A DNA stretch of 64,000 bases from Candidatus Poribacteria bacterium (GCA_022819945.1 JAJEGI010000103.1:41821-105820), one strand, 5' to 3'. Counted from the first letter of the stretch, positions 11,120 through 63,503 are shown. Program-made: numbers and translations. Notes: a model not told the origin generated them from the letters alone.

Positions 11120-14100
11120 TCATTCCGAAGGCGAAGTTTTGAGGATTTCCTCCCAATCCCAGACCAAAATTGTGCCATCCTGCCCGGCACTGACGAGTGT
11201 TTTTCCATCAGGTGAAAAGACCAACGTCTCTACTATTGAGGTGTGTCCATTGAGGGTGGTAATTTTTCCCCCTATTGTCATATCAAACAATTCGATGCTA
11301 CCGTTTCTCATTCCTGCCAAGAGAACAGTGTCATCAGGTGAAAACGCTAACGATTTGGTGCCGCGTGGAACATCTTTAAGACTGGGCTGTTTACTACTAC
11401 CCAACAAACGAATTTTTTGTTCGCTTCCGACAGCGAGCATTGCGCCATCTGAAGAGTATGTGAGCGTTGTAATAGTATCTCGATAGTTAATGCTCGTTTT
11501 ATTCGGTTCTCTTTGTCCAGCGAGGAGGGGAGCTAACGCAACTCCGGTTTCTGCGTCCCACATCTGAACCTTTCCATCCATGGTGCCACTGACGAGTTTT
11601 TTACCATCAGGCGAGAATACAAGAGCACTGGGTTGAGACCTGTGGAGAAGCATCGCGCCTGGTGGAGGTATCAAGTCGCCATTTCCATTCGGATTGTGTT
11701 CATCTAAGAGAGGTATGTCAAAGCTGGTGCCAGTCTCAGTATTCCATAAATGAATTTTACCCTGCCTCCCGAAAGCCACCGTTTTTCCATCAGGCGAAAA
11801 AGCTATGTTTGAACCTGGATAAGTTCCAGCATTCCTCTTATCTAATGTTGCCAACTCACGTCCTGTCGTCACATCCGTCAGCCGAACTATATGATCTGAC
11901 AACCATACAGAGGGGGTTATGACTGACCCAGCTTTGAGGAACATAGACGCTTTTGCGCCGATACTGACGAGCTGAGTTCCGCCGGGTGAAAACGCCAAAG
12001 TCGGTAAGAAATCCCGATGCCCTGTCATCTGAAGATCGGTTTTTTGTGATGTTTCCAAATTCCAAATGGTAATTATCCCGTTAAAAGCGACACTCGCGAG
12101 CGTGGAACTACCTTTAATGAAAGACACAGCTTTCACCCATTCCGTGTGTTCTGTAATATTAATGGGTAGTAAATCTCCTGTTTCTGTATTCCAGAACCGA
12201 ATGGTGCCATCAATGCTGCCGCTTGCGAGTGTTTTTCCATCAGGTGAAAACGATAGCGCAGCAATATCGTTTAGATGTCCAGTGAGCGTCGTGATCAGTT
12301 CCCCCGTGTCGGTATCCCACAAATGCACCGTTTTATCAGTGCTGCCGCTTGCGAGCCTTTTCCCGTTTGGAGAAAATGCTAAAATGCTTATCCAGCCTGT
12401 GTGTTTTCGGAGGATAATCAATTCGGTGCCGGTGGTAGTATTCCATAATCGCACCGTTTTATCCTTACTTCCACTGGCAAGTCGCTTGCCGTCCGGAGAG
12501 AATGCTAAGGCTATAACATGACTGCTTTTGCCTTGTAAAACCTTCGTTTCCACTTGTATAGCAGGACTCTTTTTCATCTGTAAAGGGCGGAGACCCTTCA
12601 TTTGAACCTTTTCCTTCTTATCTGTTTCTACTGCCGGCGGCAGCGGTGGAAATGCTTGAACTTGCTCTACTTTTCCTATGAGAGTAGATAGTTTTTTACC
12701 AGTCCTTGTGTCCCACAACTCAATTTCCCCATCCTCCCCGCCAACCGCAAATTTGTCGTATGTCAGGGCGTATGCTTCAGGCATAGGTCTCGATTTTATC
12801 ACTTCCCAAGATCGTTCCTTAATATTTTTGACACTTCCCTGTCTGTTTTCGATGTTTAACCTGCAGATTGAATCTGCCCAGTTTCCTAAAGTGACAAGCG
12901 TTTTCCCGTCTTCAGAGAATCGCAACACTGATGCCGAACGAGGACCATCAATAAGTGCGACTTTCTGACCGGTGGCAATCTCCCACAATTGAAATCCCTC
13001 ATGAAACTTATATTTTCCACCGCTACTTGCAATGAAGCGTCCATCCGGTGAAAATGCGATGGACTGACATATACCGGGGAACATGTCAATTTCTTTTCCC
13101 GTTTCTATATCGTAAAGCCATATACCGATATTGCTTCCGACAGCGATTTGTGCGCCATCCGGCGAAAACTGCATCGCAGTAATTCCACCCTTTCCGAGCC
13201 GCGCTTTTGCTTCCTTCGGAAGATGCCATTGTGAAGGGTCTTTAACGACTTCTTCTGCGCGGGCTTCTGCAACGAGTGCTGAGGTATCATCACGTTGTTG
13301 GTTAGGCGTATTGCTTCTACCCTGAGCGTTGATGCTGCCGATCCGCGTCCGAACATCCGGTTTTGAGGAGCGATTTAGCACAAGTGGTGCGTCAATAATT
13401 TTGATTGACATCTCCGATGCGGCATCAAGACTATAGGGCTGCTGGAAACGGATGGCGTGTTGTTGATTCCCAATACCTAACATTAGGAGTACCAAGGCAA
13501 GCGTGGAAGCGGCGATTGTCCACGGCATGAAGGGCTTACCACCAGAGGGCACGGCGGGTTTAATGCGGGCAATCTCTTGCATAATATTCTCGGTGAGATT
13601 CGGCGTGATTTTGAAGTTTTCTAAAGCCTCTCTAATCATCGGTTCCTCTTTTTTCAAACGCTGCTGTGCGCGGCGGAGGCGACTCTTAATCGTGTTTTTC
13701 GATACACCTAAAAACGCGCCAATCTCTGTGCATGTCATCTCACCGAAGTAGTGCAGGGTCATGATGGTACGTTCACTGTCTTGGAGTTTCGCCAGCAATT
13801 TCTTGACGACATCGCGTTGCGCTTCTGCGGTTGTGCGCTCGTTTTCCGCAGCGACAAACGCTGAATACATCTCTTTTTGCAACTGCTCATCTTCTGTCTC
13901 CTCCAATTGCTCCAGTGGCTGCGTCCACACCCGCTTCTTACGGAGCCAAGAACTACACCGATTCGCTGCGATGACATAAAGCCAACTGTCAAAACGCTGC
14001 GGCTCTTTGAGTGTCGCCAACTTCTTGTATGCCTTCAGAAAAGTATCCTGTGTAATTTCCTCGGCAATGTGGAAGTCTCCGATTTTCCGCCATGCAAGTG

Positions 14101-14197
14101 CGTGAACCTGCTTCTGGTATTTTTTCACAAGCACGGAGAATGCATCATCATCACCTGCAAGGACGCGTTGGATGAGTTCAACATCGTCTTTTTTCAT
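11120..14197 (-). CDS. ECF sigma factor fused to a transmembrane helix and a long WD40 beta-propeller region
   Basis: N-terminal sigma-70 regions 2 and 4 (FSVLVKKYQKQV..., TIMTLHYFGEMTCTEIGAFLGVSKNTIKSRLRRA). One TM segment (WTIAASTLALVLLMLGIG). Many FSPDGK..LASGS.D.T..LW repeats. Confidence 0.9.
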   Translation of the reverse strand: MKKDDVELIQRVLAGDDDAFSVLVKKYQKQVHALAWRKIGDFHIAEEITQDTFLKAYKKLATLKEPQRFDSWLYVIAANRCSSWLRKKRVWTQPLEQLEETEDEQLQKEMYSAFVAAENERTTAEAQRDVVKKLLAKLQDSERTIMTLHYFGEMTCTEIGAFLGVSKNTIKSRLRRAQQRLKKEEPMIREALENFKITPNLTENIMQEIARIKPAVPSGGKPFMPWTIAASTLALVLLMLGIGNQQHAIRFQQPYSLDAASEMSIKIIDAPLVLNRSSKPDVRTRIGSINAQGRSNTPNQQRDDTSALVAEARAEEVVKDPSQWHLPKEAKARLGKGGITAMQFSPDGAQIAVGSNIGIWLYDIETGKEIDMFPGICQSIAFSPDGRFIASSGGKYKFHEGFQLWEIATGQKVALIDGPRSASVLRFSEDGKTLVTLGNWADSICRLNIENRQGSVKNIKERSWEVIKSRPMPEAYALTYDKFAVGGEDGEIELWDTRTGKKLSTLIGKVEQVQAFPPLPPAVETDKKEKVQMKGLRPLQMKKSPAIQVETKVLQGKSSHVIALAFSPDGKRLASGSKDKTVRLWNTTTGTELIILRKHTGWISILAFSPNGKRLASGSTDKTVHLWDTDTGELITTLTGHLNDIAALSFSPDGKTLASGSIDGTIRFWNTETGDLLPINITEHTEWVKAVSFIKGSSTLASVAFNGIITIWNLETSQKTDLQMTGHRDFLPTLAFSPGGTQLVSIGAKASMFLKAGSVITPSVWLSDHIVRLTDVTTGRELATLDKRNAGTYPGSNIAFSPDGKTVAFGRQGKIHLWNTETGTSFDIPLLDEHNPNGNGDLIPPPGAMLLHRSQPSALVFSPDGKKLVSGTMDGKVQMWDAETGVALAPLLAGQREPNKTSINYRDTITTLTYSSDGAMLAVGSEQKIRLLGSSKQPSLKDVPRGTKSLAFSPDDTVLLAGMRNGSIELFDMTIGGKITTLNGHTSIVETLVFSPDGKTLVSAGQDGTILVWDWEEILKTSPSE

Positions 14198-14362: not shown

Positions 14363-15430
14363 TTACTCTTTGTCTTTTCGCAGAAGCACTGGAGATGTGA
14401 GGTCCCAGAGTCGGACTGTGCTGTCTTGACTACCGCTTGCGAGCGTTACACCGTTTGGACTGAACGCGACGCCCTTGATGGGTGCTGCGTGCCCTGTGAG
14501 AGTTGCGATTTGCGCACCTGTGGCAATGTTCCAGAGTCGGATCGTCTTGTCCTGACTTCCACTTGCGAGTGTTAATCCATCCGGACTGAAGGCGACACTC
14601 CACACCGTAAGCGTATGTCCAACGAAAGTTTTCAGTTGTTGTCCTGTGTTTGTATCCCAGAGTCGGATCGTGTGGTCCCAACTTCCGCTTGCGAGGGTCT
14701 GTCCGTCCGGACTGAACGTGACGCTGAAGACCCAATTCGTGTGTCCACTAAATGTTTTCAATTGCTCACCGGTGGCAATGTCCCACAAACGGATGGTATT
14801 TCCTGCATTGCCACTCGCTAACGTTTTTCCATCGCTACTGAAAGCAACACTGAAAATATTCTCGGTAGCCTCGGTAAGAGTTTTCAGTTTCCTGCCTGTC
14901 TCTACATCCCATAGATACAGATTCCCATCCTCACTGCCGCTTGCGAGTATCTTGCTATCAGGGCTGAAAGCGATCGTATTGACCCAATGCAAACCGTTTG
15001 GCGCATTTTCCTTCATGAATCTAAGGTTCTCGCCGGTGGCAGCGTCCCACAGGCAAATCACTTCACTTTCATTGATACCCCCTGCGATCATCCGTCCATC
15101 TGGACTAAATGCGACGCTGTTAATATCCGCAGTGAAGTTTCTCTGAAAAGCCACCCAGAAATTTTTCTCCATCTTTATTTCCTGTCCTGTGACAGCATCC
15201 CAAAGTCGGACGGTGTTATCCCTGTCACTTGCGACGATTGAACCGTCAGGACTGAACGCGACACTGTGGACACCTCTCCTGATGCCTAAATCAATCGTGA
15301 TGTGAGACATATCTGGGGCGGAAATTGGCTCCATAGTAGACTTCTCCTTTCGGATCGGGTTCTCAGATTTCACCGACACCATCTCAGCACCGCCTAACAT
15401 CAAAAGTGCTATCGTCACCAGCGTTCTCAT
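14363..15430 (-). CDS. secreted WD40-repeat protein
   Basis: Signal-like N-terminus MRTLVTIALLMLGG. At least seven SVAFSPDG..LASGS.D.TIRLWD repeats. Confidence 0.9.
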   Translation of the reverse strand: MRTLVTIALLMLGGAEMVSVKSENPIRKEKSTMEPISAPDMSHITIDLGIRRGVHSVAFSPDGSIVASDRDNTVRLWDAVTGQEIKMEKNFWVAFQRNFTADINSVAFSPDGRMIAGGINESEVICLWDAATGENLRFMKENAPNGLHWVNTIAFSPDSKILASGSEDGNLYLWDVETGRKLKTLTEATENIFSVAFSSDGKTLASGNAGNTIRLWDIATGEQLKTFSGHTNWVFSVTFSPDGQTLASGSWDHTIRLWDTNTGQQLKTFVGHTLTVWSVAFSPDGLTLASGSQDKTIRLWNIATGAQIATLTGHAAPIKGVAFSPNGVTLASGSQDSTVRLWDLTSPVLLRKDKE

Positions 15431-15581: not shown

Positions 15582-16199
15582 ATGGGATTCAGGTTAGGAG
15601 TTGGTGGGAGATTGAGTGATGGAGAACTCGTGGAAGCGTATCGAAAGGAAGACAAAAATGCGTGGGATACGCTCTGCCAGCGATATACACACGAACTTTT
15701 CGAGTTTTTCAATGGTAAGGTTAGAACCCGTGAAGATGCCAAAGACCTCACGCAGGATACGCTGATTGAGGCGATGCGTAATATCTCGCAACTTAAAAAG
15801 CCTGAAAGTTTTCGCGGGTGGCTTTACAAGATTGCACACGGCCATTTAGCGAAATATTTCAGAGACAGACGCAAGTGGTGGATTTCCGAACCTACGGATG
15901 ACGGTGTGCTGGAGACGAGAGCCTCCTACGCTGCACCAACGGATCAGCAACCCGACAATCTCGTGATTGCGCAAGAACACTTGGAGATCGTCCGGCGTTT
16001 AGGAGAGGAGCTGCCGAAATCGGAACGTGAAGTGTTCCGATTGAAATTTGCGGATCCTGAGATGCCGCAGAAAGAGATAGCGAAAATATTGGGTATCTCG
16101 GTGGATGCTGTGAAAACTCGATGGCGGCGCGGTAAGCAAACCCTCCGAAAGCAGTTGGAGGCGAAATATCCGGGTGAGTTTACTTATCTGTTTAAGTGA
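15582..16199 (+). CDS. ECF-family RNA polymerase sigma factor
   Basis: Region 2 (DLTQDTLIEAMRNI...WLYKIAHG) and region 4 (EREVFRLKF..PQKEIAKILGISVDAVKTRWRRG). The true start may lie a few codons downstream. Confidence 0.85.
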   Translation: MGFRLGVGGRLSDGELVEAYRKEDKNAWDTLCQRYTHELFEFFNGKVRTREDAKDLTQDTLIEAMRNISQLKKPESFRGWLYKIAHGHLAKYFRDRRKWWISEPTDDGVLETRASYAAPTDQQPDNLVIAQEHLEIVRRLGEELPKSEREVFRLKFADPEMPQKEIAKILGISVDAVKTRWRRGKQTLRKQLEAKYPGEFTYLFK

Positions 16200-52924: not shown

Positions 52925-52986
52925 CCTATTGTTATACATCTTTCCATTTTTCCCAAAAGTAAAATTTTTCATAAAAATGCATTTTA

Positions 52987-53014
52987 TGCAACCTTTCTTG
53001 TGTTAAAACACGAC
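52987..53014 (+). promoter_or_regulatory. ECF-type promoter candidate, TGCAACC-N17-CGAC
   Basis: About 35 nt upstream of the sigma-fusion start. A 45-nt block is nearly identical to 59378-59424. Confidence 0.5.
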
Positions 53015-53050
53015 ATAACATCTTGAGGCAATTTACTTTGGAGGATGGTC

Positions 53051-56014
53051 ATGAAAAACGAAGATGTCGGGCTGATTCAACGCATCTTGTCTGGTGATGA
53101 TAGTGCGTTCACTGCACTCGTGGATAGGCATCGTGAATGGATTCATTCGCTCGCATGGCGCGAAATCGGTGATTTCCATGCGGCACAAGAAATTACACAG
53201 GATACCTTCATCCAAGCATTTAAATCGCTGCCTACCTTAAGGGATCACAATCGTTTTTTGGGGTGGTTGTATGTCATAGCAAAGCGTCAATGCATCGAAT
53301 GGTTACGAAGGAAACCTGCCACAATGCAGTCGTTAGACGCAATGTCAAAGATTGAATTAGAGCAACTGTTCTATACACGACACCTTGAGAAAGAGTTGAC
53401 ACAAGCATCGACAGAAGAACTCCGCGATGTCGTAGAACGTCTGCTCCGAAAATTGCCAGAAACCGAACGCTCTGTGATGGTATTGCACTATTTCAGTGGC
53501 TTGACATGTGAAGAGGTGAGTGCACGTTTAGACGTATCGCTGAACACAGTAAAGAGTCGACTCTATCGGGCACGGAAACGATTGGAACAGGAGGAGCCGA
53601 TGCTTCGCGAAAATTTGAGTCCCAATTTATTAAAAAGCGATCCACGATACATTAGCGTTCAGGCAACTGCAGCGACAGATACTGGAGAACATATTGCGGA
53701 AGGCGGTTTTGATCTCTGCGAGACAGATAAGGTTTTCACGTCTATCAGTTCTCACACGACAGGACTCAGTGGCGACTACCCGAGACCGATGTACATGCTG
53801 CTCCACTATGTTAATCACGGCAGTGATATTGACCTCTTTAAATTTCCGTTGGTTGATGAAAGTTGTTGGAAGCAGGAAGGTCCCCACAAATCAGAAGTGA
53901 CGACAACCTTGGAAGGAGACCGTGAAACAGTCAAAGTTGCCGCTGGTATTTTTCGAGCGTGCCTGAAACATAAAACCGTCTTCACAAACGCGGATGTTGA
54001 CGAGCCAGATGCCGAATCGCAAAACGCGTTTATAAACGGCACGCGTTATCTGTGGTTTGCTATGGGCGTTGGGCTTGTGAAGATGCGGTATGTGCATGCC
54101 AACGGTGTCGTTACAGAAGCCGAATTGCTTGAATATAAGATTCCAGACGAATCGCAAGAATACCTCCCAGTCCAAGTTGGCGCGGAGTGGACTTACAGAT
54201 GGCACAGCGATTATCGTGAGGAAGCCGTTATTGAGGAGTGGCGGGTCATTAGGAACTTCAGTGAACCTAAGGCACTTGATAACCCGATGGAGCTTGCGTC
54301 GGCAAGGTATGAGGTCAAAGTGGATGCCGATGCACCGCGCGTCGCGCATGTCAAGTGTACACTAACGCCGAAAGTGGGCAGCGGTGCCAAAGCGGACCAA
54401 AAGTTGTTGCCATTATCCATGAGCCATTTTGGTACGGAGTGGTTGTACGATGGATATGCCCGGTATCTTCGAGATTTGACAGTCATTGATGCTAACGGAA
54501 AGACATTACAAGTAGAAGAGATTGGCAAGACGCAGTGGATCGTTGAAGTCCAAGATGAATCACCTGTGACGTTGGACTATAAAGTGCTCCTCAATCATGA
54601 TACGCGCGATTGGCCCTTTGGCAGGAATGAAGCACCCTACGCCCAATCGGATTGCGTATTCTGGCCCGGGTATGCGCTGTTTATCGTCGGTGAAGTGAAG
54701 GATATTGAACTAAAAGTTGATGTGCCTGACAATTGGCATGTCTCAACGCATTGGGAACAGGTTGCGTCGGATGGACATCGTTTCGTATGCGAAGATCAGG
54801 ACGACCTGATGTTTGCGTATCTCGTGCTTGGGGAATACTGTAAAAGTTTGGCAAAAGTCGGAGATACGGAGGTTGTCGTTGCGCTGGGTGGACGTTTTAA
54901 AGCGTCTATATCCGAAGTGCAGGGGACTGTTGAGGCACTGTTGGAAGGCTATGCAACCGTATACGGTGGTACGCCAAAGGGACGGATACTGTTTGTCGCG
55001 AACCCTTATGGCGAAAAAGGACATCTCGGCGGTGGGGCATCTCGGCGTAGTATCACTGCACATATAGGTGACGAATTAGATGAAGCGAGTCGGCGTTTTT
55101 GGCTGCCGCTGGTTTCACGCGTGGCTGGTTATGTCTGGGTTGGACGCGGGGGTATCAATTCTAAAGAGCAGGAATATTGGTTCGTTGCCGGTTTCACGCA
55201 GTATTGTTCAGAAATCATCTCTGCCCGCCTTGGACTTACATCTGAAAGCGATTTTCTTAGGAATTTTGAACGCACGTGGGAGTCGTATCTATCTCGACAA
55301 GGCGAGCTCTCTATCCGCGAGGCGGGTGAAGATAAATCCGCTAACCGTGAACTCGTCTATGATGGCGGCTGTTTAGTCGCGGCTGCTTTGGATTTGCAGA
55401 TTCGCAACCGAACGCAAAATCGAGGCAGCTTGGACGATGTAATACAACAGATGTATCGTGAGTTCGGTCTCACTGACAACGCCTTCACGATAAACGATGT
55501 GGTTAGGATTATCAGCCAAATTGCAGGTGAAAATTTTAAACCTTTCTTCAATGAATACGTGATCGGAACAGAACGATTGCCCTTAGAAGAATACTTTACA
55601 GACGCGGGTTTGGATGTTGAGATAGCATTTGGCGAAAGACTACCGAGTCTTGAACATATTCTCTTTCAGATGCTTGAGATTAAATCACTTGGCGGTCCAA
55701 CAGGCGGTGGCATGTTCATCCACCATTCACCGCAATATGAAGACGATGACAACTTGATATGCATCAACGGCACACCGGTGAAATATTTTGACGACATCAG
55801 AAGGGTTGCTAAAGACTGGAAATCCGGGGACGTAGTGGAACTAACCCTTGAGAGAGAGGGTGAAGAAATTGTCCTGCCGATCACATTAGCAGGGGACACC
55901 TCTAAAAGACCGCCGTTGGAACCGGGTATTATTGATGTCACGATCACGAAAAGAACAGATCGCACGGACTTACAACGCGCGATCTGGTCGGGAATGTTAG
56001 GAGAAAATGAATGA
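53051..56014 (+). CDS. ECF sigma factor fused (no TM segment) to an M61-peptidase/PDZ-like body with all zinc-site residues substituted
   Basis: N-terminus MKNEDVGLIQRILSGDDSAF... is paralogous to the 14197 sigma. Regions 2 and 4 are present. The C-terminal ~790 aa are colinear with 56011..58389, but HEICH is replaced by RVAGY (55118-55132) and SEGFT by VAGFT. Confidence 0.85.
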   Translation: MKNEDVGLIQRILSGDDSAFTALVDRHREWIHSLAWREIGDFHAAQEITQDTFIQAFKSLPTLRDHNRFLGWLYVIAKRQCIEWLRRKPATMQSLDAMSKIELEQLFYTRHLEKELTQASTEELRDVVERLLRKLPETERSVMVLHYFSGLTCEEVSARLDVSLNTVKSRLYRARKRLEQEEPMLRENLSPNLLKSDPRYISVQATAATDTGEHIAEGGFDLCETDKVFTSISSHTTGLSGDYPRPMYMLLHYVNHGSDIDLFKFPLVDESCWKQEGPHKSEVTTTLEGDRETVKVAAGIFRACLKHKTVFTNADVDEPDAESQNAFINGTRYLWFAMGVGLVKMRYVHANGVVTEAELLEYKIPDESQEYLPVQVGAEWTYRWHSDYREEAVIEEWRVIRNFSEPKALDNPMELASARYEVKVDADAPRVAHVKCTLTPKVGSGAKADQKLLPLSMSHFGTEWLYDGYARYLRDLTVIDANGKTLQVEEIGKTQWIVEVQDESPVTLDYKVLLNHDTRDWPFGRNEAPYAQSDCVFWPGYALFIVGEVKDIELKVDVPDNWHVSTHWEQVASDGHRFVCEDQDDLMFAYLVLGEYCKSLAKVGDTEVVVALGGRFKASISEVQGTVEALLEGYATVYGGTPKGRILFVANPYGEKGHLGGGASRRSITAHIGDELDEASRRFWLPLVSRVAGYVWVGRGGINSKEQEYWFVAGFTQYCSEIISARLGLTSESDFLRNFERTWESYLSRQGELSIREAGEDKSANRELVYDGGCLVAAALDLQIRNRTQNRGSLDDVIQQMYREFGLTDNAFTINDVVRIISQIAGENFKPFFNEYVIGTERLPLEEYFTDAGLDVEIAFGERLPSLEHILFQMLEIKSLGGPTGGGMFIHHSPQYEDDDNLICINGTPVKYFDDIRRVAKDWKSGDVVELTLEREGEEIVLPITLAGDTSKRPPLEPGIIDVTITKRTDRTDLQRAIWSGMLGENE

Positions 56015-58389
56015 AAGAAAAAATTGCGTCTGAACGCAACATTATCTTGAGTGCGAATACTGCTACAGAAAGTGGCGGACATCTCGCAGAAGGGACTTTC
56101 ACACTGAAGAAAACCGATACAGTTTTGACATCTATTGACTTTGGCACTGCAGGACACGGTGGTGGTGATCCGTCGCCGAAGTACATGTTGCTATATTATA
56201 TGAGCCATTGTAATACTGACCTCTTCAAATTTCCGATCGGTGTTGGCGAAACTTGGACAGAAGAAGGACACTGGCATGTACAGACGCGAAGTCGTTTGGA
56301 GGGGCATGAATCTGTAGAAGTCTCAGCAGGCACGTTCTCGGACTGCCTCAAACATAAAACTGTCTTCACAGACGCTGATGTAAAGGATACTAAAGCTGAA
56401 CTACGAAACGCGCTTTTGAACGGCACCCGTTATCTATGGTTTGCCGAGGGTATCGGTCTTGTTAAACTACGGTATGAACATTCCAATGGGGTCGTCACAG
56501 AAGCCGAATTGCTTGAATACAAGGTTCCTGTTGAAGACCGAGAATATCTTCCTTTGCAAATTGGCAATCTGTGGACCTATAAATGGCAAAACATGTATCG
56601 TAACGAAGCTGCTATTGAAGAGTGGCGCGTCATCCGAAATTTCAGGGAACCTGAGAATCTTGATACCCCAATGAAACTTGCATCGGCAAGGTACGAGGTG
56701 AAAATAGATGCCGATGAACCGCGCGTCGCACACGTCAAGTGTCTGCTAACGCCGAAGGCAGACAGTAACACAAAAGATGCCCAAAAGCCGTTGCTGTTAT
56801 TCATGAGCCATTTTGGGACTGAAGACCTGTACGACGGATATGCTCGGTATGTTCGAGATCTGACAGCCATAGATACGAATGGAGAAAAAATACCGGTCAC
56901 AGAGATTAACAAAACACAGTGGGTAGTTGAAACGCAGAATGCATCGCCTGTGACGTTGCGTTACAAAGTCCTGTTGAATCATGATGCGCGGGAGTGGCCC
57001 TTCGGTAACGATGAAGCACCCTACGTGCAAGAAGACTGTATTTTCTGTCCCGGATATGCTTTATTTATCACCAGTGAGGTGGAAGATATTGAACTGCGTG
57101 TTGATGTTCCCGATGACTGGCACGTCTCGACCCCTTGGAACCCTATTGGACACGAAAAGTATCGTTTTACTGTCGCAGATCATGACGACTTGATGTATGC
57201 GTATCTTGTGCTGGGGACGCATTCCGAGAGAGTGGTGGAATCTGAAGAGACAGAGATTGTGCTTGCCTTGGGTGGACACTTCAAAGCATCTATGGGTGAA
57301 GTCCAAAGAACTGTTGAATCACTTCTGCACACGTATTCAAAGATTTTTGGGGGGACACCAAAGGATCGCATGTTATTTGTGGCGAACCCTTGTGATAAAT
57401 ACAGCGGAGGCGGTGTATCAGGACACAGCATCAGCGTTCTGATGGACGGAACATTGGGGGCAGACAACAGACACTCATGGGCACCGCTCGTAGCACACGA
57501 AATTTGCCATATCTGGAATGGAAAAGCGATCGATTTTAATACACAGGAGTACTGGTTTAGTGAAGGTTTCACGGAGTACTGTTCAAAAATTACCTGCGTT
57601 CGCCTTGGCATAATTTCTGAAGATGATTTTCTCAGAGACCTTGAGCGCAAGTGGGAATTGTATCTGTCTAAGCAAGGCGATCTCTCTATTCGGGAAGCAG
57701 GCGAGAACAAGTCTACCAACCGAAATCTGGTCTATGAGGGCGGCAGTCTGATTGCTACCGCGTTGGACTTGCAGATTCGCACTTTTACGGAAAACCGGAA
57801 CAGTTTAGAAGATGTAATGACGCAGATGTATCGTGAATTCGGTCTCACAGAAAAAAAATATACGATGGACGATATCATCAAGGTTGGTAATCAAATTGCA
57901 GGTGAAGATTTACAACCGTTCTTCAAAAAGTATGTGGCAGGAACAGAACGGCTGCCTTTAGCGGAATACCTGAAAGACGCGGGTTTGGGTGCTGAGATAG
58001 CATTTGGGGAAGAACTTCCGAGTCTCGGACATATTCTCTTTCAGATGCTTCATATCTATTCACTGGGCGGTCCAACGGGCGGAGGCATGTTCATCCACCG
58101 TTCACCGCAATATGAAGACGATGACAACTTGATATGCATTAACGGCACACCGGTGAAATATTTTGATGACATCAGAAGAGTTGCCAAAGCGTGGAAACCG
58201 GGTGATGTGGTAGAGTTAACCCTTGAAAGAAAGGGTAAAGAAATTGTCCTACCGATCACATTAGCAGGTGATCCATCTGAAAAACCACCCATGGAGCCAG
58301 GGCCCATTGACGTTAGTATCACAAAAAAAATGGATCTTACAGAATCACAACGCGCCATTTTGACTGGTATTTTAGGCAATGATCGGTGA
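56011..58389 (+). CDS. peptidase M61-like gluzincin with C-terminal PDZ domain (cytoplasmic, intact active site)
   Basis: HEICHIWNG (57496-57510) plus YWFSEGFTEY. PDZ-like DDNLICINGTPVKYFDDIRRVAKAWKPGDVVELTLERKG. ATGA overlap with the upstream gene. No signal peptide. Confidence 0.8.
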   Translation: MKEKIASERNIILSANTATESGGHLAEGTFTLKKTDTVLTSIDFGTAGHGGGDPSPKYMLLYYMSHCNTDLFKFPIGVGETWTEEGHWHVQTRSRLEGHESVEVSAGTFSDCLKHKTVFTDADVKDTKAELRNALLNGTRYLWFAEGIGLVKLRYEHSNGVVTEAELLEYKVPVEDREYLPLQIGNLWTYKWQNMYRNEAAIEEWRVIRNFREPENLDTPMKLASARYEVKIDADEPRVAHVKCLLTPKADSNTKDAQKPLLLFMSHFGTEDLYDGYARYVRDLTAIDTNGEKIPVTEINKTQWVVETQNASPVTLRYKVLLNHDAREWPFGNDEAPYVQEDCIFCPGYALFITSEVEDIELRVDVPDDWHVSTPWNPIGHEKYRFTVADHDDLMYAYLVLGTHSERVVESEETEIVLALGGHFKASMGEVQRTVESLLHTYSKIFGGTPKDRMLFVANPCDKYSGGGVSGHSISVLMDGTLGADNRHSWAPLVAHEICHIWNGKAIDFNTQEYWFSEGFTEYCSKITCVRLGIISEDDFLRDLERKWELYLSKQGDLSIREAGENKSTNRNLVYEGGSLIATALDLQIRTFTENRNSLEDVMTQMYREFGLTEKKYTMDDIIKVGNQIAGEDLQPFFKKYVAGTERLPLAEYLKDAGLGAEIAFGEELPSLGHILFQMLHIYSLGGPTGGGMFIHRSPQYEDDDNLICINGTPVKYFDDIRRVAKAWKPGDVVELTLERKGKEIVLPITLAGDPSEKPPMEPGPIDVSITKKMDLTESQRAILTGILGNDR

Positions 58390-58463: not shown

Positions 58464-59345
58464 ATGTTGAAAAGATTTCGGGTCGTTTTTAGCCTATTGA
58501 TCATTTTGGGCTTCAGTTCAACACTGGTCGGAAAAGAGAAGGCAGACACCTATTTCCCACACGCGATAGGAAGTTACTGGGTTTACGAAGACCCAGATGG
58601 CAACGAACTAACACGTCGTGTCATTGAAAACAAAGAGATTGATGGAGAGACGTACCATGCCTTCAGTTATGAACCTACCGTGGAAGATTGGACAGATTAC
58701 GAGCATTACGTTCATCCCAATTTTTACCAAATTCGTAAAGACGGAATAGCCTTCTTTGTTGGTGATAAAGTGGAAAAAGCGTTTGAGGCAAAACTCCGTA
58801 AAGAAATAGACGCGGATATCAAGAAACAGCAAGGGATCTCGACATCCCCCGGCGTTAGTGCTGATTTCAGTTATGAGATTAAGGTCGAAGCGAAAGACGA
58901 TTTCTATCTTCTCCCAACCCCTATCGTTTTTGATAAAGCGTGGACAGCAACGCAGATCAGCGGCTCCATAACGCTCAAGCTGAAAATGCAAAGTCCTGAT
59001 TTTCAGATTCCGGGCGGTGATCAGGTTAATGCTATTCCTATTGATTTACTCGAAAAAGGGAAGGTGACAGCCAAAGAAATCGTAAAGACCGCCGCGGGGA
59101 CATTTGAAGACTGTTTGAAAATTGAGTATTGGATGGACACGGGCGATGAGGCAAAAGTAGCGGAGAAAGAGGGAGAGGCGCAATCAGCATCACCGGATGA
59201 GGCTGGTATAGAGGTAACAACGCTCTGGTTGGCACCTAACGTCGGGATTGTGAAATTTATCCGTGTGTCCGCTGATTCAAAAGTGGAAAAGAGTCTTGAA
59301 CTCACACAATACGAAATCAAGCCCACGGGTTCCGGCAGCGAATAA
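58464..59345 (+). CDS. secreted protein sharing the AGTF.DCLK...LW.A..VG.VK module with the two preceding genes
   Basis: Signal peptide MLKRFRVVFSLLIILGFSSTLVG. TAAGTFEDCLKIEY...TTLWLAPNVGIVKFIRV. Confidence 0.7.
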   Translation: MLKRFRVVFSLLIILGFSSTLVGKEKADTYFPHAIGSYWVYEDPDGNELTRRVIENKEIDGETYHAFSYEPTVEDWTDYEHYVHPNFYQIRKDGIAFFVGDKVEKAFEAKLRKEIDADIKKQQGISTSPGVSADFSYEIKVEAKDDFYLLPTPIVFDKAWTATQISGSITLKLKMQSPDFQIPGGDQVNAIPIDLLEKGKVTAKEIVKTAAGTFEDCLKIEYWMDTGDEAKVAEKEGEAQSASPDEAGIEVTTLWLAPNVGIVKFIRVSADSKVEKSLELTQYEIKPTGSGSE

Positions 59346-59384: not shown

Positions 59385-59411
59385 TGCAACCTTTTTGTCT
59401 TAAAACGCGAC
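59385..59411 (+). promoter_or_regulatory. ECF-type promoter candidate, TGCAACC-N16-CGAC
   Basis: Upstream of the LamG and permease genes. See 52987. Confidence 0.5.
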
Positions 59412-59472: not shown

Positions 59473-60285
59473 ATGAGATGGATAATGCTTCTTTTCGTTG
59501 CTGTGCTATTATTCACAACAAGCCAAGCGACTGCTAAACTGGAGAAAGACCTCGTCGTCTATTTTACCTTTGACAAAGTGAAAGGCAAGAGGATTCTTGA
59601 TGCCTCCGGCAACGATCTTGATGCCGATGTCGTTGGAAATGTAGACTTTATTAAAGGCAAATATGGGGATGCGATTCATATTGCCGCTGAACCAGAAGGT
59701 GATGATTGCGTCCATGTTCCTGCGGACGATCTGCTAAAAATCAAGGGTGAGATTACAATGATGGCTTGGCTATATCATGAGGATTGGGACGCGGCCTGGG
59801 GAGTGTGGATTGATAAAGGGCGCTATGTCCCAGGTAAATGGAACGGGTCCTACAGCTTGGGATTTTTCGGTAGTTTCTTGGAATTCGGTGTTGAGGGACC
59901 AAAAATCCGAATGACTTTGGGTGGAGGTGATAAGACGTGGGGGTTTAGCGGCACAGAACCCATGGTGGATAGAAACTGGCATCATATCGCCGGTATCTAT
60001 GATGGCAAGACCGCGAAAATGTATCTGGATGGCAAAGTATTTTACGACCACGATCAGAAATTTAAATTCGTAGGTACTAATGACGCAGACTTATGTATTG
60101 GGGGCGCGGCAGGCGATCCACGGTATACCTTCAAAGACGGTTCTATTGATGAATTCGGCATCTGGCAACGCGCCCTAACCGAAGCCGAAATTGAAGAAGC
60201 GATGAAAGGTTTCCTCGCGGTTTCACCCAAAGACAAGACTGCCACCACTTGGGCGGACATTAAGCGACGGGCAATCGTTGAATAA
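59473..60285 (+). CDS. secreted LamG/concanavalin-A-like domain protein
   Basis: Signal peptide MRWIMLLFVAVLLFTTSQATA. LVVYFTFD...DASGN..D..V.G...KGKYGDAIH...NWHHIAGIYDGKTAKMYLDGK. Confidence 0.8.
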   Translation: MRWIMLLFVAVLLFTTSQATAKLEKDLVVYFTFDKVKGKRILDASGNDLDADVVGNVDFIKGKYGDAIHIAAEPEGDDCVHVPADDLLKIKGEITMMAWLYHEDWDAAWGVWIDKGRYVPGKWNGSYSLGFFGSFLEFGVEGPKIRMTLGGGDKTWGFSGTEPMVDRNWHHIAGIYDGKTAKMYLDGKVFYDHDQKFKFVGTNDADLCIGGAAGDPRYTFKDGSIDEFGIWQRALTEAEIEEAMKGFLAVSPKDKTATTWADIKRRAIVE

Positions 60286-60345: not shown

Positions 60346-61884
60346 ATGCATACACTTTGGCTTGTTATCCAACGAGAATTCGTCTCAAATGTATTGACAT
60401 CCCGGTTCATGATTGGGTTTATTGTGTGACTGCTTTCAACCGCTGTCGCCGTTTTCGTTCAGGTGGATGACCACGAAAAACGGTTAGTCGGATATAACAC
60501 GGCTATCCGGGAATCCCAAGCAGAAGCAAAGAATTGGAAACTCTACACCGATATTAGCGCAAAGGTACACAGAAAACCGAATCCGCTCGGCATTTTTAAC
60601 ATCGGGATGGAAAATTCTGGTGTAAATACCGTCGTTGTTGAGCCTGACAAGCCGATTTGGACACGGGATGGCCGTTCCCCGGGTTGGGGCGAAACGACCC
60701 AAAAGATGGGAGCCGATAACCCTTTTCTCGCAATGTTTCTCTCCGTTGATGTGGTTTTCATCTTCAAAATCGTGCTGAGTGCGTTAGCAATACTGTTTGC
60801 TTACAACACAATTTCGGGCGAAAGAGAGGATGGCACGCTAAAGCTTGTGTTGTCCAATGCTATACCAAGGGACACGGTGGTTTTAGGGAAATACCTCGGC
60901 GGTATGTTATCGCTATTCCCCATTGTTTTGGTGAGTCTGATTGTGGCACTGTTAATTGCAATCTCTTCACCGAATGTCGCCTTTGATGGAAACGACATTG
61001 CACACGTTGTGCTGATATTCGCCGTTTCGCTGTTGTACGTGTCAACGTGGTATCTTTTAGGACTGCTCTTGTCCGTCTGGACGAAAGAGGCAGCAACCAC
61101 ATTAATGCTTTCGATGTTTCTCTGGGTGATCCTGACAAGTGTTCATGCAAACGTGGCAACATTTGCGGTGACGAAATTTTCGCCACATAAACCGGACTCG
61201 GAGGAGAAAGTTTTTCAACAGACGGCGCAACTCTGGGATGATTTCAGAAAAGAACGCGACGATTACCTCAAAAAGAGGGGGTACGATAGTCCAACGAAGA
61301 CGGTCTCTTGGCGGCGCGATGAAAAAGGTAGAAAACGTGGATCTTCTGGTACTTCCTCTACCTCTGATAGATGGTTTGTTACGGAGAGTTATCGCATTGG
61401 AAATATCAAGTACGCCGATGTTTCCGTTCTCCAGGAATTTTTAAGTTATCAGGAACCGCTTCGGATTGCGTATGCGGATAGGGCGGAAGAAATTCTCAGA
61501 AAACCCGCGGATGACCGAGCGCGGAACGCGAGGTTCGCGGACCTTCTCTCCCGTATCTCCTTCGCAGATGTGTATCACTTCGCTGTCGGCGCAATAGCAG
61601 GAACCGACCGAGAGAGCTATAACGATTTTCTTGAAAATTCCAGAGCCTATAAGCGTGAGGTCGTTGAATATTTGAAAGATAAAAAAGCATTTTCTTCGCG
61701 AGCATGGTTTTCCGACGATCAGGGTGCCGCGGATGTGAAAGATCTGCCGGTTTACCGACATCAGCAGCTCTCCCTCTCGGAAAGTTTCTCCCGCGCTTCT
61801 GTGGATATTCTGATCTTGTTAGCATGGAATATTGTTCTGTTTATGGTGGCTTATGTGTCCTTTCTAAGGTATGAGATAAGTTGA
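60346..61884 (+). pseudogene. ABC-2-type permease with large extracytoplasmic loop, interrupted by an in-frame TGA at codon 28
   Basis: ATG 60346 (MHTLWLVIQREFVSNVLTSRFMIGFIV), then TGA at 60427-60429, then LLSTAVAVF... in the same frame as ORF 60463..61884. The N-terminus is about 90% identical by eye to the gene starting at 63925. Confidence 0.55.
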
Positions 61885-62033
61885 ATAGGAGGGTTATCAG
61901 TTGTCAGTCGTTGGTTGTTGGTTAAGAGGACTTTTGGAACGAATTTGACCCTTGAAGTTTTTCAGAGCGATGATATGTTACAAACCAATCTCTTAACTGA
62001 TAACTGATAACTGACAACCAACAACTACTAAAA

Positions 62034-63503
62034 ATGATTTTGCAGATTGCGAAAAAAGAGATCCATCACAATCTCACGACGCTCCGGTTCGCTTTGATGA
62101 TAATTCTGCTACCCCTTCTGATGATAGCGAACGCGTTGATATACGGCTATGGTAATGATGGATATATAACACAGGTCAATGCTTACAATAGGCAAATAGA
62201 AAAAAAGTTAGCTCACGTTGAAAGGTATGCCACCCAGAGTTTAGGGGAGTTGGCGGTGATAGGCCCCGGCGATATGCCGAAACGTCCGAGTCCTCTGAAA
62301 TTCTGCGCCAATGGGTCTGATGAAGTGATACCGCGTTCTGTCATCATGCAGGAGTACGGTGCTGCCAGTCGCAGTTCCCGTTCTGGTAATTTTGAAGCTT
62401 ATGCGTGGAAGGGACCTTGGACATTAAGGTATCCGTTGAATAGTTTTGATGAAGGAGGCGCGACCCATCGGGTCAAAATAGACTGGGTTTTCATCGGTAT
62501 GCTGATGAGTTTTTTCGCAATTTTATTCACCTTTGATGCCATCGCTGGGGAACGGTCGCGGGGTACGCTAAGCCTCATAATGTCCAACACGGTCTCGCGC
62601 GGCCAGGTGTTGTTGGGAAAATATCTCGGTGCGTTTTTGACGCTCATGGCACCACTCGTAATTGGCATCCTAATGAATCTGCTGCTTGTTCAGCTCTCTG
62701 GGAGTCTCTCCTTTGATTCGGGAACCTCTCTCAGAATTCTCGGAATGGTCGGGCTTTTTGGGCTACTCGTTTCCATCTTTATTTTTCTTGGACTCTTTTT
62801 TTCAAGTCGCGTTTCAAACCCGATTACGAGCTTAGTATGGCTCTTACTCACTTGGGTTTTCCTCGCGTTCGTCTTTCCGAACCTACTCGGGATCTTTGTC
62901 GGCAACCTGAATCCAATTCCATCGATTGACGAGGTCTCATTGCGGAGAAAGGCACAATTGGAGCAAAGTAGCGATCAATTCCAGCCTTTCGGCGCGAGTG
63001 CTGAACCGCTATCAAGTAAGTTGAACCAAGCACCCTCCACTGAAAATCCATCAGCGACCCGACGGTGGGCAACATACTTTACAACACAGAAAGGAATAGA
63101 AACAGAAAGTATTGATAAACACATCGATCAGCAGTTTCAGCAGGTACAGCTCGCCCGCGATCTCACCCAAATCTCACCAATAGCGACTTTCCAATACGCG
63201 ATGGAAGGGCTTGCGAATACAGGTATTGTGAGTTATATGAATTTTGTCAAACAGGCGCGCCGGTATCGCCAGACGTTCATAGACTTCATCAAAACGGAAG
63301 ATCAGAGCGATACGGAGAGTTTACATATCTATCCTGTAAAAGAGGGGTTGTCTCAGAAGCCGGTGGATCCGGACGCTGTGCCGGTTTTTGAGGAGCGGAT
63401 CTCTTACCGAAGTGTGTTAGCCCAGGTCGGTTTGCTGGTGCTGTTTAATCTACTATCCTTTATTATGGCGCAAGTCTCTTTTCTGATGACTGAGATTAAG
63501 TAA
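62034..63503 (+). CDS. ABC-2-type permease with large extracytoplasmic loop
   Basis: MILQIAKKEIHHNLTTLRF plus TM1, a long loop, then five C-terminal TM helices (FDAIAGERSRGTLSLIMSN motif shared with 60346..61884). Confidence 0.75.
   Translation: MILQIAKKEIHHNLTTLRFALMIILLPLLMIANALIYGYGNDGYITQVNAYNRQIEKKLAHVERYATQSLGELAVIGPGDMPKRPSPLKFCANGSDEVIPRSVIMQEYGAASRSSRSGNFEAYAWKGPWTLRYPLNSFDEGGATHRVKIDWVFIGMLMSFFAILFTFDAIAGERSRGTLSLIMSNTVSRGQVLLGKYLGAFLTLMAPLVIGILMNLLLVQLSGSLSFDSGTSLRILGMVGLFGLLVSIFIFLGLFFSSRVSNPITSLVWLLLTWVFLAFVFPNLLGIFVGNLNPIPSIDEVSLRRKAQLEQSSDQFQPFGASAEPLSSKLNQAPSTENPSATRRWATYFTTQKGIETESIDKHIDQQFQQVQLARDLTQISPIATFQYAMEGLANTGIVSYMNFVKQARRYRQTFIDFIKTEDQSDTESLHIYPVKEGLSQKPVDPDAVPVFEERISYRSVLAQVGLLVLFNLLSFIMAQVSFLMTEIK

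Follow-up and report, generated by a model that had tools for sequence, protein, structure and literature searches.

The window analysed here, a 64,000-nucleotide stretch of Candidatus Poribacteria DNA, encodes an ECF sigma factor that is fused in a single open reading frame (gene A) to a soluble M61-peptidase/PDZ body with a destroyed zinc site. The fusion is conserved in about 50 species. The reading that we favour, tentatively and at somewhat less than an even chance, is that the product of gene A is a one-component ECF sigma factor whose pseudo-peptidase may serve as a non-cleaving in-cis sensor, the product of the adjoining gene B being accessory. The following elements of gene A were recognised:

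53040..53044, + strand: GGAGG ribosome-binding site for the start at 53051, in a conserved GGAGG-6 nt-ATG/GTG arrangement
53045/53051..56014, + strand: gene A ORF, encoding the ECF sigma, a linker and a ~790-aa DUF3108-like/M61_N/M61/PDZ body
53051..53620, + strand: ECF sigma domain (aa 1-190), with sigma2 at aa 23-88 and sigma4 at aa 127-178
53591..53647, + strand: linker (aa 181-199, EEPMLRENLSPNLLKSDPR), conserved and predicted to be flexible (pLDDT <50, aa 182-199)
53645..54280, + strand: DUF3108-like all-beta module (aa ~199-410), common to gene B, g3 and many exported or sigma-fused proteins
54308..55600, + strand: M61_N beta domain (aa 420-587) and thermolysin-like M61 domain (aa ~600-850), from Pfam and Foldseek
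55118-55132 (RVAGY) and 55178-55195 (WFVAGF), + strand: destroyed zinc site, from motif comparison with gene B
55613..56014, + strand: PDZ-like C-terminal domain and tail, with a PDZ_2 match at the homologous place in gene B

Since the ATG at 53051 is preceded by GGAGG and this start is kept in the relatives, it was taken as the true start of gene A. The Pfam models Sigma70_r2 (aa 23-88), Sigma70_r4_2 (aa 127-178) and Sigma70_ECF matched the N-terminal part, and NCBIfam TIGR02937 (sigma70-ECF) scored 99.2 bits against a cut-off of 42.9. Only sigma2 and sigma4 are present, with regions 1.1 and 3 absent, as in ECF (group IV) sigma factors. The sigma domain, which is 74-97% identical between species and has a dN/dS of 0.05-0.12, looks functional from its sequence; its Cys81 and Cys153 are invariant throughout the fusion family. 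In the linker, E181, E182, M184, R186, N192, L194 and R199 are invariant or nearly so. No transmembrane (TM) segment or signal peptide was found in A or B (the highest 19-residue Kyte-Doolittle means were 0.99 and 0.90, respectively), and the Pfam and NCBIfam scan of the neighbours showed no anti-sigma-like domain in the adjoining genes. A missing anti-sigma gene is usual in extension-bearing ECF groups, whereas most ECF groups encode one alongside.

In the body, Pfam placed Peptidase_M61_N at aa 420-587 and gave a weak Peptidase_M61 match at aa 705-753. The best Foldseek matches of the gene A model were 4fgm (E 1e-25), 8j9c and 7xyo, all of them M61 proteins. The DUF3108-like module is all-beta in the AlphaFold2 model of gene A; DUF3108_like is matched by Pfam in B and g3, and BLAST links g3 to A and B. 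Compared with gene B, the active site of gene A carries the changes H>R, E>V, H>Y and, at the distal position, E>A. Lacking both HExxH and the distal Glu that are expected of an M61 peptidase, gene A encodes a non-peptidase homologue.

This loss is a general property of the fused copies, as HExxH is degenerate in 46 of the 47 examined and intact in all 37 free paralogs (37/37). Among 239 columns invariant in the free copies, systematic replacement in the fused ones affects the catalytic Glu, the second His and one Leu only; 172 columns are invariant across both fused and free copies, and F229, H252, W464, E489 and E569 are invariant residues specific to the fused ones. Either at least two branches lost HExxH or a single loss was followed by reversion, and the distal Glu disappeared later. 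A single fused ortholog (L030/P0079) has an intact site, so inactivity of the body is not strictly required. A metal-sensor role for the body was also considered and dropped, the fused copies having lost ligands and gained no new ones.

The dN/dS values were 0.12-0.20 for the M61_N and M61 region of gene A and 0.14-0.19 for the whole fused body, compared with 0.15-0.25 for B. Purifying selection acts on the fused body with the same strength as on the active paralog. The PDZ regions of A and B share 80-95% amino acid identity and a third-position identity of ~0.8, and that of the gene A in the window (winA) resembles the B class more than it does distant A orthologs. This region appears to have been homogenised with gene B in recent times. 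Gene conversion that exchanges the PDZ region between A and B suggests an interchangeable binding function.

56011..58389, + strand: gene B, 792 aa, free signal-less paralog with an intact HEICH (57496-57510) and the distal Glu in WFSEGF (57553-57570)

Gene B is preceded by AGGAG at 55999-56003 and overlaps gene A by ATGA, from which it is predicted to be translationally coupled to A. Residues 199-986 of A align with residues 9-791 of B at 63% identity over 788 columns with 5 gaps. In B, Pfam found DUF3108_like and PDZ_2 matches, and phmmer against 4fgm gave an E of 5.5e-14. The B-class free paralogs form a sister clade of the fused bodies, separated from them by an ancient split. It should be noted that A, B and all Poribacteria paralogs carry GGG[VA]SG[RH]SIS where 4fgm has GGLEHRNS. 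The free 'active' paralogs are atypical M61 proteins, and their catalytic activity is predicted from HExxH and the distal Glu.

The anatomy set out above agrees with the original prediction, which had described a complete ECF sigma N-terminus in 53051..56014 with no TM segment, four changed key residues in the sigma-fused copy, about 790 residues colinear with an ATGA-overlapping next gene, a gluzincin site kept in that gene and no neighbouring anti-sigma gene. It had also asked whether the architecture recurs in related genomes. The fusion family comprises 120 protein clusters at 64-100% identity, 118 of them with sigma domains, and 58 Candidatus Poribacteria loci, many of them on complete chromosomes, hold a full-length fusion; the ~800-aa body is present in all orthologs. 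The sigma-M61 fusion is widespread, but its companion is not: of 47 loci, 23 have a cytoplasmic free paralog immediately after the fused gene, and the other 24 have none adjacent. The proposed pairing with an active paralog is therefore no constant feature of the system, and B cannot be an obligatory activator or cleaver.

The promoter and the genes downstream of gene B are arranged as follows:

52977..52990, + strand: ATGCATTTTATGCA, an ATGCA direct repeat/palindrome that extends into the -35 element and is conserved, as AAATGCATTTTATGCA, in almost every upstream region aligned
52987..53014, + strand: P1, ECF-type promoter (-35 TGCAACC at 52987-52993, 17-nt spacer, -10 CGAC at 53011-53014)
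58464..59345, + strand: g3, secreted DUF3108-like protein with a signal peptide from an internal Met (ORF listed from 58401)
59385..59411, + strand: P2, second copy of the P1-type promoter (TGCAACCTTTTTGTCTTAAAACGCGAC), a pattern match
59473..60285, + strand: g4, secreted LamG/concanavalin-like protein (Pfam Laminin_G_3, E 6e-22)
60463..63503, + strand: g5 (60463-61884) and g6 (62034-63503), ABC-2-type permease pair with DUF3526 (ABC2_membrane_2, E 5e-29 each)

P1 sits 37 nt upstream of the gene A start, and by sequence it gives gene A an ECF-type promoter of its own, with an AAC-containing -35 and a CG-containing -10 element. In at least 47 loci, the motif TGCAACCTTT..TTAAAA..CGAC[AT] precedes the sigma-M61 gene by 36-103 nt. 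The strict promoter pattern occurs in 2 copies in the window, compared with 0.32 expected by shuffling, and no sigma-70-type promoter was found in the spacer holding P1. The ATGCA repeat/palindrome could be a candidate binding site for a second regulator. In the fusion loci, ~30 further in-cluster promoter copies, all on the strand of the sigma gene, precede permeases (7), exported or large M61 paralogs (8), LamG proteins (2) and other exported proteins (14). The sigma factor of gene A apparently autoregulates and drives the local cluster.

A metagenome-wide scan with the promoter pattern TGCAACCTTN{6,8}TAAAANNCGAC returned 52 stretches, with about seven Poribacteria contigs, each of which carries cluster genes or a cluster-type promoter. 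The other stretches were chance matches or belonged to an unrelated recurrent element, and none of the 52 added a regulon member from beyond the cluster. Neither this conserved ECF promoter nor its local regulon, made up of exported proteins and ABC-2 permeases, figured in the original account of the locus. Of the neighbours, g3 has homologs in most fusion loci, and the ORF of g4, listed from 59425, has its signal peptide from Met17. No neighbour of the sigma-M61 gene is better conserved than the permease genes g5 and g6, whose synteny holds in nearly all loci; neither an ABC ATPase nor a peptide importer was recognised within the cluster in the fusion loci.

The sigma factor of gene A falls within a large ECF clade with extensions of 400-1280 aa (WD40, BNR, redoxin and others). 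A TM helix follows sigma4 by ~30 aa in 77 of 90 clade representatives, with a conserved motif before the helix, whereas in the fusion family only the first part of this motif survives; the 19-residue Kyte-Doolittle maxima are 1.6-2.65 in the clade relatives and 0.99 in gene A. The linker was compared with L057, L054 and the protein encoded at 11120-14197 of the window. By this comparison, the linker is a remnant of the juxtamembrane motif of the TM-containing relatives, with the TM helix and ~135 aa missing in gene A. Related arrangements exist in the clade: L057 is sigma-TM-DUF3108-like (in L057 and P0144 the DUF3108-like module alone accompanies the sigma), P0125 is sigma-TM-M61 with RELFH, and the 11120-14197 protein is sigma-TM-WD40 and is adjoined by an exported free WD40 gene. 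Exported versions of the body with lipoprotein or signal sequences occur among the Poribacteria paralogs. Among 46 representatives of the clade, a rough motif search detected the sigma2 Cys in 45 and the sigma4 Cys in 16.

By these sequence comparisons, the fusion family is most simply a TM-less derivative of a membrane-spanning sigma-TM-sensor design. Its descent from a clade with a TM helix in most representatives does not sustain the earlier view of a mechanism unrelated to the membrane/RIP paradigm. The size of the extension, also stressed in that view, does stand out at ~800 aa next to the ~100-200 aa of ECF41/42, but is not unique given the range within the clade.

The AlphaFold2 model of full-length gene A (pLDDT 69, pTM 0.50) showed no confident packing between sigma and body. 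For residues 1-424 alone, pLDDT was 53 and pTM 0.27, with the beta module poorly folded. The domain folds of gene A are usable, and the inter-domain arrangement is not confident.

A regulatory role in cis is the natural reading of a real and conserved fusion, a selected soluble pseudo-peptidase, a missing anti-sigma gene and an architecture absent from the ECF literature searched; no paper was found that combines ECF with M61, or Poribacteria with ECF. The dead peptidase body would then replace an anti-sigma factor as an in-cis sensory or regulatory domain. Most likely it would still bind the peptide substrate of its family, in the cleft or the PDZ domain, without cleaving it, and occupancy by this ligand would alter the access of sigma2 and sigma4 to RNA polymerase. 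The sigma factor so controlled would act on its own promoter and on the cluster of exported proteins and ABC-2 permeases. Where B is present, it would probably hydrolyse the same ligand, setting a threshold or ending the signal, and would not be the protease that liberates the sigma. Such a sensor may have arisen when a sigma-TM-sensor fusion lost its TM helix, which would have left a formerly exported peptidase module in the cytoplasm. Several observations were counted against a sensory body: the outputs are exported while the sensor is cytoplasmic and the cluster holds no peptide importer that we found; the active paralogs are atypical M61 proteins with the GGLEH motif replaced; the fused ortholog L030/P0079 still has its active site; and AlphaFold2 gave no confident sigma-body contacts (pTM 0.50 at full length).

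A more specific version, which we consider possible but rather doubtful, is that the pseudo-peptidase traps its substrate as a cytoplasmic peptide receptor gating the sigma, while the live B, co-translated with A from one mRNA, destroys the same peptide and so tunes or ends the signal. Such a receptor/eraser pair would go back to the duplication of one exported peptidase and its relocation to the cytoplasm through loss of the TM helix, and, if true, it would be a case of ECF control without a membrane step, an anti-sigma factor or a kinase.

We consider it unlikely that the body of A and B instead form a heteromer, with B acting in an anti-sigma-like way or sigma-A regulating B, and with partners exchanged upon substrate binding. 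A and B are ancient sister paralogs whose genes have stayed next to each other and are translated together, their PDZ regions remain near-identical through gene conversion in the lineage of the window, and the same pattern of a fused domain and a free paralog, in one compartment, is seen at the sigma-TM-WD40 gene (11120-14197). The deposition of 8j9c with 4 chains per entry is compatible with oligomerisation. However, in about half of the species B is not adjacent to the fused gene, and the invariant residues specific to the fused copies (F229, H252, W464, E489 and E569) could equally be a sigma-docking surface.

Slightly less probable again is control through the transporter, in which the body would dock on g5/g6, perhaps replacing an ATPase or beside one, and the sigma would be held at the membrane and released by transport flux; this would restore in trans the tether that was lost with the TM helix. 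The conservation of g5/g6 as neighbours under the same promoter, the lack of an ABC ATPase gene in the cluster and the membrane-tethered ancestors of the family are consistent with it. Meanwhile, the sequence gives no sign of a body-permease interaction, DUF3526 ABC-2 permeases are common without any sigma factor, and the specific loss of the catalytic residues is left unexplained.

We rate proteolytic release, in which B would cleave the flexible linker or degrade the dead body to free an active sigma, marginally lower still. The coupling of B to A through the ATGA overlap, the HExxH and distal Glu kept in 37/37 free copies and a linker that is conserved yet has low pLDDT would all suit it, and the Poribacteria paralogs, which do not have the Glu of GGLEH (4fgm), may not be classical aminopeptidases. 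However, M61 is an exopeptidase family and its solved and named relatives (4fgm, 8j9c, 7xyo) are aminopeptidases, so internal cleavage of the linker by B is not expected. The 24/47 loci without an adjacent cytoplasmic paralog still keep the fused gene, the promoter and the dead site, and release leaves unexplained why A loses only catalytic residues while the rest of the cleft is conserved.

Occasional decay does occur (L040 is split into three ORFs and L044 has 568 aa), but that the fusion is an artefact or a relic with a non-functional body is extremely improbable, as ~46 independent genomes, closed chromosomes included, share the unbroken frame and the substitutions, which rules out an assembly chimera or sequencing errors, and the dN/dS of ~0.15 along the whole body, with its 172 columns invariant in fused and free copies, rules out a decaying pseudogene.

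ECF sigma factors are the third major mode of bacterial signalling, and their diversity in uncultivated phyla is mostly uncharacterised. The fusion preferred here as an in-cis sensor adds a four-domain pseudo-peptidase, not in the current classification papers, to the ECF repertoire. Its anatomy is clear, with a promoter motif, a local regulon, a live paralog, an ortholog that bears the active site and TM-containing cousins that show its origin. Two questions become approachable in a heterologous host: how large soluble extensions gate a sigma factor, and how enzymes become sensors by losing catalysis while keeping the binding cleft. Poribacteria are dominant sponge symbionts, and the exported peptidases, lectin-like proteins and ABC-2 permeases of the cluster apparently driven by the sigma are plausible tools for life on the host matrix.

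Among known proteins, A and B resemble peptidase M61 (glycyl aminopeptidase; 4fgm, 8j9c, 7xyo) in having M61_N, a thermolysin-like domain and PDZ, and differ from it by the extra N-terminal DUF3108-like module. A also differs by the loss of HExxH and the distal Glu, and the GGLEH Glu is lacking in both. Both are cytoplasmic, unlike the related Poribacteria paralogs with lipoprotein or signal sequences. Disabled enzyme folds that keep their pocket and report a substrate to a DNA-directed output are found in ROK-family repressors and MocR aminotransferase-like regulators, and the enzyme-derived sensors of one-component regulators are often encoded beside the active enzyme. Gene A may be their analogue, a disabled enzyme fold used as a sensor, except that its output is a sigma factor.

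The closest ECF parallels are ECF41 (SnoaL-like), ECF42 (TPR) and ECF238 (Cys-rich), sigma factors with C-terminal regulatory extensions that are described as 'one-component systems'. With them, gene A shares a sigma2-sigma4 core fused to a group-specific soluble domain of >50 aa, no anti-sigma gene and, by prediction, the autoregulatory ECF promoter of extension-bearing ECFs. In ECF41 (SnoaL_2), as proposed here for A, the regulatory or receptor domain has the fold of an enzyme but no catalysis (PMC7826278, PMC8999054, PMC5766207). Gene A differs from the three groups in its four-domain extension, which is several times longer (~800 aa compared with ~100-200 aa), and in that this extension can be recognised as a pseudo-peptidase and has a live paralog encoded alongside. 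The M61/PDZ extension type was not found in the ECF classification papers searched, which for PMC7826278 means its main text.

ECF57 (formerly ECF01-Gob) of Planctomycetes has long WD40-containing extensions and, according to a review, 'two conserved cysteines linking sigma2 and sigma4'. Gene A is similar in its invariant Cys81 and Cys153, a likeness judged by described features, and its clade in its long extensions, many paralogs per genome and WD40 members (11120-14197 of the window; L055). Gene A comes from Poribacteria, not Planctomycetes, and its extension is M61/PDZ, not WD40. In IutY/ECF243 and ECF52 (SCO4117), sigma and anti-sigma are fused in membrane proteins of sigma-TM-extracytoplasmic topology that are activated by RIP (PMC8999054). 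The wider clade (77/90) is like them in having a sigma, a short juxtamembrane motif, one TM helix and an extracytoplasmic domain, and the sigma-TM-M61 protein P0125 has the same topology. Unlike these proteins, the fusion family has no TM helix, so site-1/site-2 membrane proteolysis cannot be its mechanism. The fusion is a variation on the known theme of a sigma factor with a regulatory tail, not a new kind of system; what is new is the type of extension.

ORF calling, Pfam, NCBIfam and the alignment of the two genes confirmed that the product of gene A is an ECF sigma factor fused to a DUF3108-like, M61_N, M61 and PDZ body, and that gene B, encoding a free paralog of this body, follows with an ATGA overlap. 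The coordinates and site residues in the original prediction were thereby also confirmed. The two genes are laid out as follows:

53045/53051..56014, + strand: gene A; the start is 53051 (GGAGG 6 nt upstream; ATG/GTG kept in all relatives)
Gene A, aa 23-88: Sigma70_r2 (Pfam)
Gene A, aa 127-178: Sigma70_r4_2 (Pfam); Sigma70_ECF also matched
Gene A, aa 420-587: Peptidase_M61_N (Pfam)
56011..58389: gene B, 792 aa; AGGAG 7 nt upstream

Gene A scored well over the cut-off of the NCBIfam sigma70-ECF model, and the profile searches proposed as a check found sigma r2/r4 and M61_N in it, and M61 only weakly. In the AF2 model of its product (pLDDT 69), the best structural matches were M61 proteins (4fgm, 8j9c, 7xyo), followed by M1 aminopeptidases. 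Aligned over 788 columns, the A body (aa 199-986) and B share 63% identity. The site is intact in B (HEICH at 57496-57510, WFSEGF) and altered in A (RVAGY at 55118-55132, WFVAGF). The claim that A has no TM segment also held: the 19-residue Kyte-Doolittle mean (maximum about 1.0) revealed neither a TM helix nor a signal peptide in A or B.

A database search with gene A yielded 120 clusters with 64-100% identity; sigma domains were present in 118 of them, and the named members were Candidatus Poribacteria. The scan of one genome per species gave 58 loci, all of them in Poribacteria MAGs, many on closed chromosomes. This recurrence rules out an assembly chimera or a sequencing artefact. As the fusion forms a single family (P0022) at 50% clustering, it is lineage-specific. 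In two chromosome-scale assemblies the fused gene is damaged, being broken into three ORFs (L040, 10001-13107) or shortened to 568 aa (L044, 10001-11707). Such damage is either occasional decay into pseudogenes or the result of indel errors in the long reads.

The HExxH motif is degenerate in 46 of 47 fused copies (SHVVGY, GYMVSS, ARLVCY, AGVVCY, ANVIGY and others), and it is kept together with the distal Glu in all 37 free paralogs. The sole fused copy with an intact site (AHEIGH, WFSEGF) is that of L030/P0079 (L030 10001-12958), which has no adjoining free paralog. Divergently upstream of it (7442-9718, - strand) lies an ECF of the same clade joined via a TM helix to TPR and AhpC/TSA-redoxin domains. 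In a distance tree of the bodies, the fused copies form one clade, the adjacent free paralogs are its sister and the exported paralogs fall outside both. Within the fused clade the intact L030 copy sits between degenerate branches, and the earliest branches are those that retain the distal Glu. HExxH therefore disappeared before the distal Glu did, on two or more occasions (or once, with a later reversion).

Selection was estimated by the Nei-Gojobori method against six orthologs. The sigma part had a dN/dS of 0.05-0.12 and the fused body one of 0.14-0.19, its catalytic domain taken alone giving 0.12-0.20; in B the ratio was 0.15-0.25. The alignment has 781 columns. The free copies show no variation in 239 of them, and the fused copies differ systematically at just three of these: one Leu (A229, now Phe), the second His and the catalytic Glu. 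In 172 columns the free and fused sets have the same invariant residue, and N192, L194, F229, H252, W464, E489 and E569 are invariant in the fused copies alone. The purifying dN/dS and the 172 shared columns refute the idea that the fused body is a relic; selection maintains the dead body, from which catalysis alone has been removed. All Poribacteria members, live or dead, carry GGG[VA]SG[RH]SIS where 4fgm has GGLEHRNS, so that the live paralogs are themselves atypical M61 proteins.

The origin of the fusion was traced through ninety representatives (50% clusters; 200-1280 aa) with 47-55% identity to the gene A sigma. A TM helix lies about 30 residues past sigma4 in 77 of them, preceded by the motif EEPMIREAL.NFQI.PNLTENIMREI.RIKP..PSG.KP.PW, and WD40, BNR/sortilin-like and TPR-redoxin are among the domains found on the outside. 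L057 is a sigma-TM-DUF3108-like protein whose module is 53% identical to the N-terminus of B, P0125 is a different sigma-TM-M61 with RELFH, and P0124, P0126, P0127, P0129 and P0132 carry the DUF3108-like, M61 and PDZ body with a lipoprotein signal. Of the motif, gene A retains EEPMLRENLSPNL alone, having lost the TM helix along with about 135 residues. Taken together, the TM-bearing clade, the exported versions of the body and the TM loss in A indicate that the body of A is a formerly exported module that is now cytoplasmic, and that B is its duplicate, likewise without a signal. WD40 proteins of this clade (P0256, L055) have lost the TM helix as well. The window itself contains another member, with two adjoining genes:

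11120-14197, - strand: a further ECF fusion from this clade (1025 aa), with a sigma of 52% identity, a TM helix at ~aa 224 and then WD40 propellers
14363-15430, - strand: free signal-peptide WD40 protein
15582-16199, + strand: plain 205-aa ECF sigma

With the sigma-TM-WD40 fusion beside a free WD40 gene, the pattern of a fused domain plus a free paralog in the same compartment recurs. Upstream of this fusion lies ATGCACCC..TTAAAC..CGTCA, related to but distinct from the gene A promoter, as would be expected for paralog-specific ECF promoters.

The spacer before gene A contains AAATGCATTTTATGCAACCTTTC..TTAAAA..CGACA (P1), kept in essentially every locus 36-103 nt 5' of the start codon. It has the typical form of an ECF promoter, in which 17 nt separate a -35 that contains AAC from a -10 of CGAC; no sigma-70-type promoter was predicted upstream of A. 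The strict pattern was found twice in the window (52987 and 59385) versus 0.32 expected by shuffling. The second copy (P2) sits in the gap before g4, the gene of a secreted LamG protein, which is followed by the ABC-2 permease pair g5 and g6. Across 1.14 Mb of related loci, this strict pattern preceded the fused gene 47 times. Within the cluster there were about 30 further copies, invariably on the sigma-gene strand, ahead of genes for LamG and other signal-peptide proteins, for exported M61 paralogs and for the permease pair. Three stray matches, whose spacers are unlike these, appear to be due to chance. Two groups of cluster proteins have their own promoter copy:

L024 13026-16730, L025 14636-18340, L045 15678-19343: exported M61 paralogs, N-terminal Big_5, 1221-1234 aa
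L028 14447-17473, L033 14064-17048, L036 19125-22118: proteins of 994-1008 aa, with only about 210-240 residues common to the M61 body

We infer two units, P1 driving A, B and g3 (a secreted DUF3108-like protein) and P2 driving g4, g5 and g6, both dependent on the gene A sigma. The promoter and the cluster regulon are new relative to the original prediction.

Several other elements were seen near these promoters. ATGCATTTTATGCA (52977-52990), an ATGCA repeat/palindrome kept across species, overlaps the P1 -35 and might bind a further regulator; many of the second promoters have a comparable A/T-rich ..TTTTATGCAACC context ahead of them. Between P1 and the RBS, roughly half of the species (L002-L013, L018, L022-L025, L031, L036, L037, L039, L041, L044-L046, L049, L050, L052) carry a ~45-nt 5' leader insert, CGAAGCTTGCAGGTTTCCGAAACTTGCTATCAGATGAC, with two imperfect direct repeats (CGAAGCTTGC / CGAAACTTGC), absent from the window and the remaining species; this may be a regulatory element of the leader, or just a short insertion. 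The promoter scan also caught an unrelated recurrent element, ATTTTTTGATCATGCAACCTT(C)AAAATGTAAAACGCGAC, near-identical in many soil and sediment metagenome contigs of GC 0.51-0.60 (L059, L060, L072, L088-L092, L096, L098, L103, L108, L109), which is a conserved non-Poribacteria element. Directly upstream of P1, 49431-52883 (+) encodes a 1150-aa protein whose family matches are all HTH hits near the C-terminus, a single one of them significant (AbiEi_4-type winged helix, aa 1119-1143). None but the nearest relatives (L002-L006, L042, L046, L049, L051) have it ahead of A, and it thus stands outside the system. Farther away, 3809-10054 (+) encodes a 2081-aa protein that comprises a C25 (gingipain-type) cysteine peptidase domain with its propeptide and a C-terminal FlgD_ig-like domain.

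The observation behind the original prediction is real, and its interpretation, sigma control by an in-cis pseudo-peptidase paired with an active paralog, is partly supported. The sigma-M61 architecture recurs in the 58 loci, and B is intact beside A in the window. The free paralog is an inconstant partner: of 47 loci, 23 have a signal-less paralog directly downstream of the fused gene (overlapping or nearly), and in the remaining 24 the permeases, g3 or an exported paralog that has a promoter to itself come next. Docking of A on the ABC-2 permeases, whose genes follow P2, is a less probable alternative. So are an A-B heteromer and cleavage of A by B, and against both stand the 24 loci in which the signal-less paralog is missing downstream. 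The PDZ region of the gene A product stands at 0.82-0.87 to the B-class versus 0.74-0.78 to distant A orthologs, and between A 55560-55900 and B 57950-58290 the amino acid identity is 80-95% and that of third codon positions ~0.8 versus ~0.6 elsewhere, which points to a B-to-A gene-conversion tract in the window lineage.

In the reading we favour, gene A is a one-component ECF in which the dead M61/PDZ body would serve as an in-cis sensory or regulatory domain, its binding cleft retained and cleavage impossible. Ligand occupancy of the body would gate the sigma, which may switch on both the operon it belongs to and the adjacent one for exported proteins and permeases. Where present, B might hydrolyse the same ligand and so tune the response. 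The system is a well-posed experimental subject.

An M61, PDZ or peptidase extension is absent from the main texts of PMC7826278, PMC7671368, PMC8999054, PMC8103513 and the PDZ survey PMC6411480. Without a TM helix, gene A does not count among the RIP-type sigma/anti-sigma fusions, and within family M61 its body is a non-peptidase homologue. By sequence context its clade resembles ECF57, a group with long extensions and conserved Cys in sigma2 and sigma4 (PMC8999054), in its long extensions, WD40 paralogs and Cys in both sigma regions. Like the extension-bearing ECF41/42/238, gene A combines a fused soluble domain with the lack of an anti-sigma factor.
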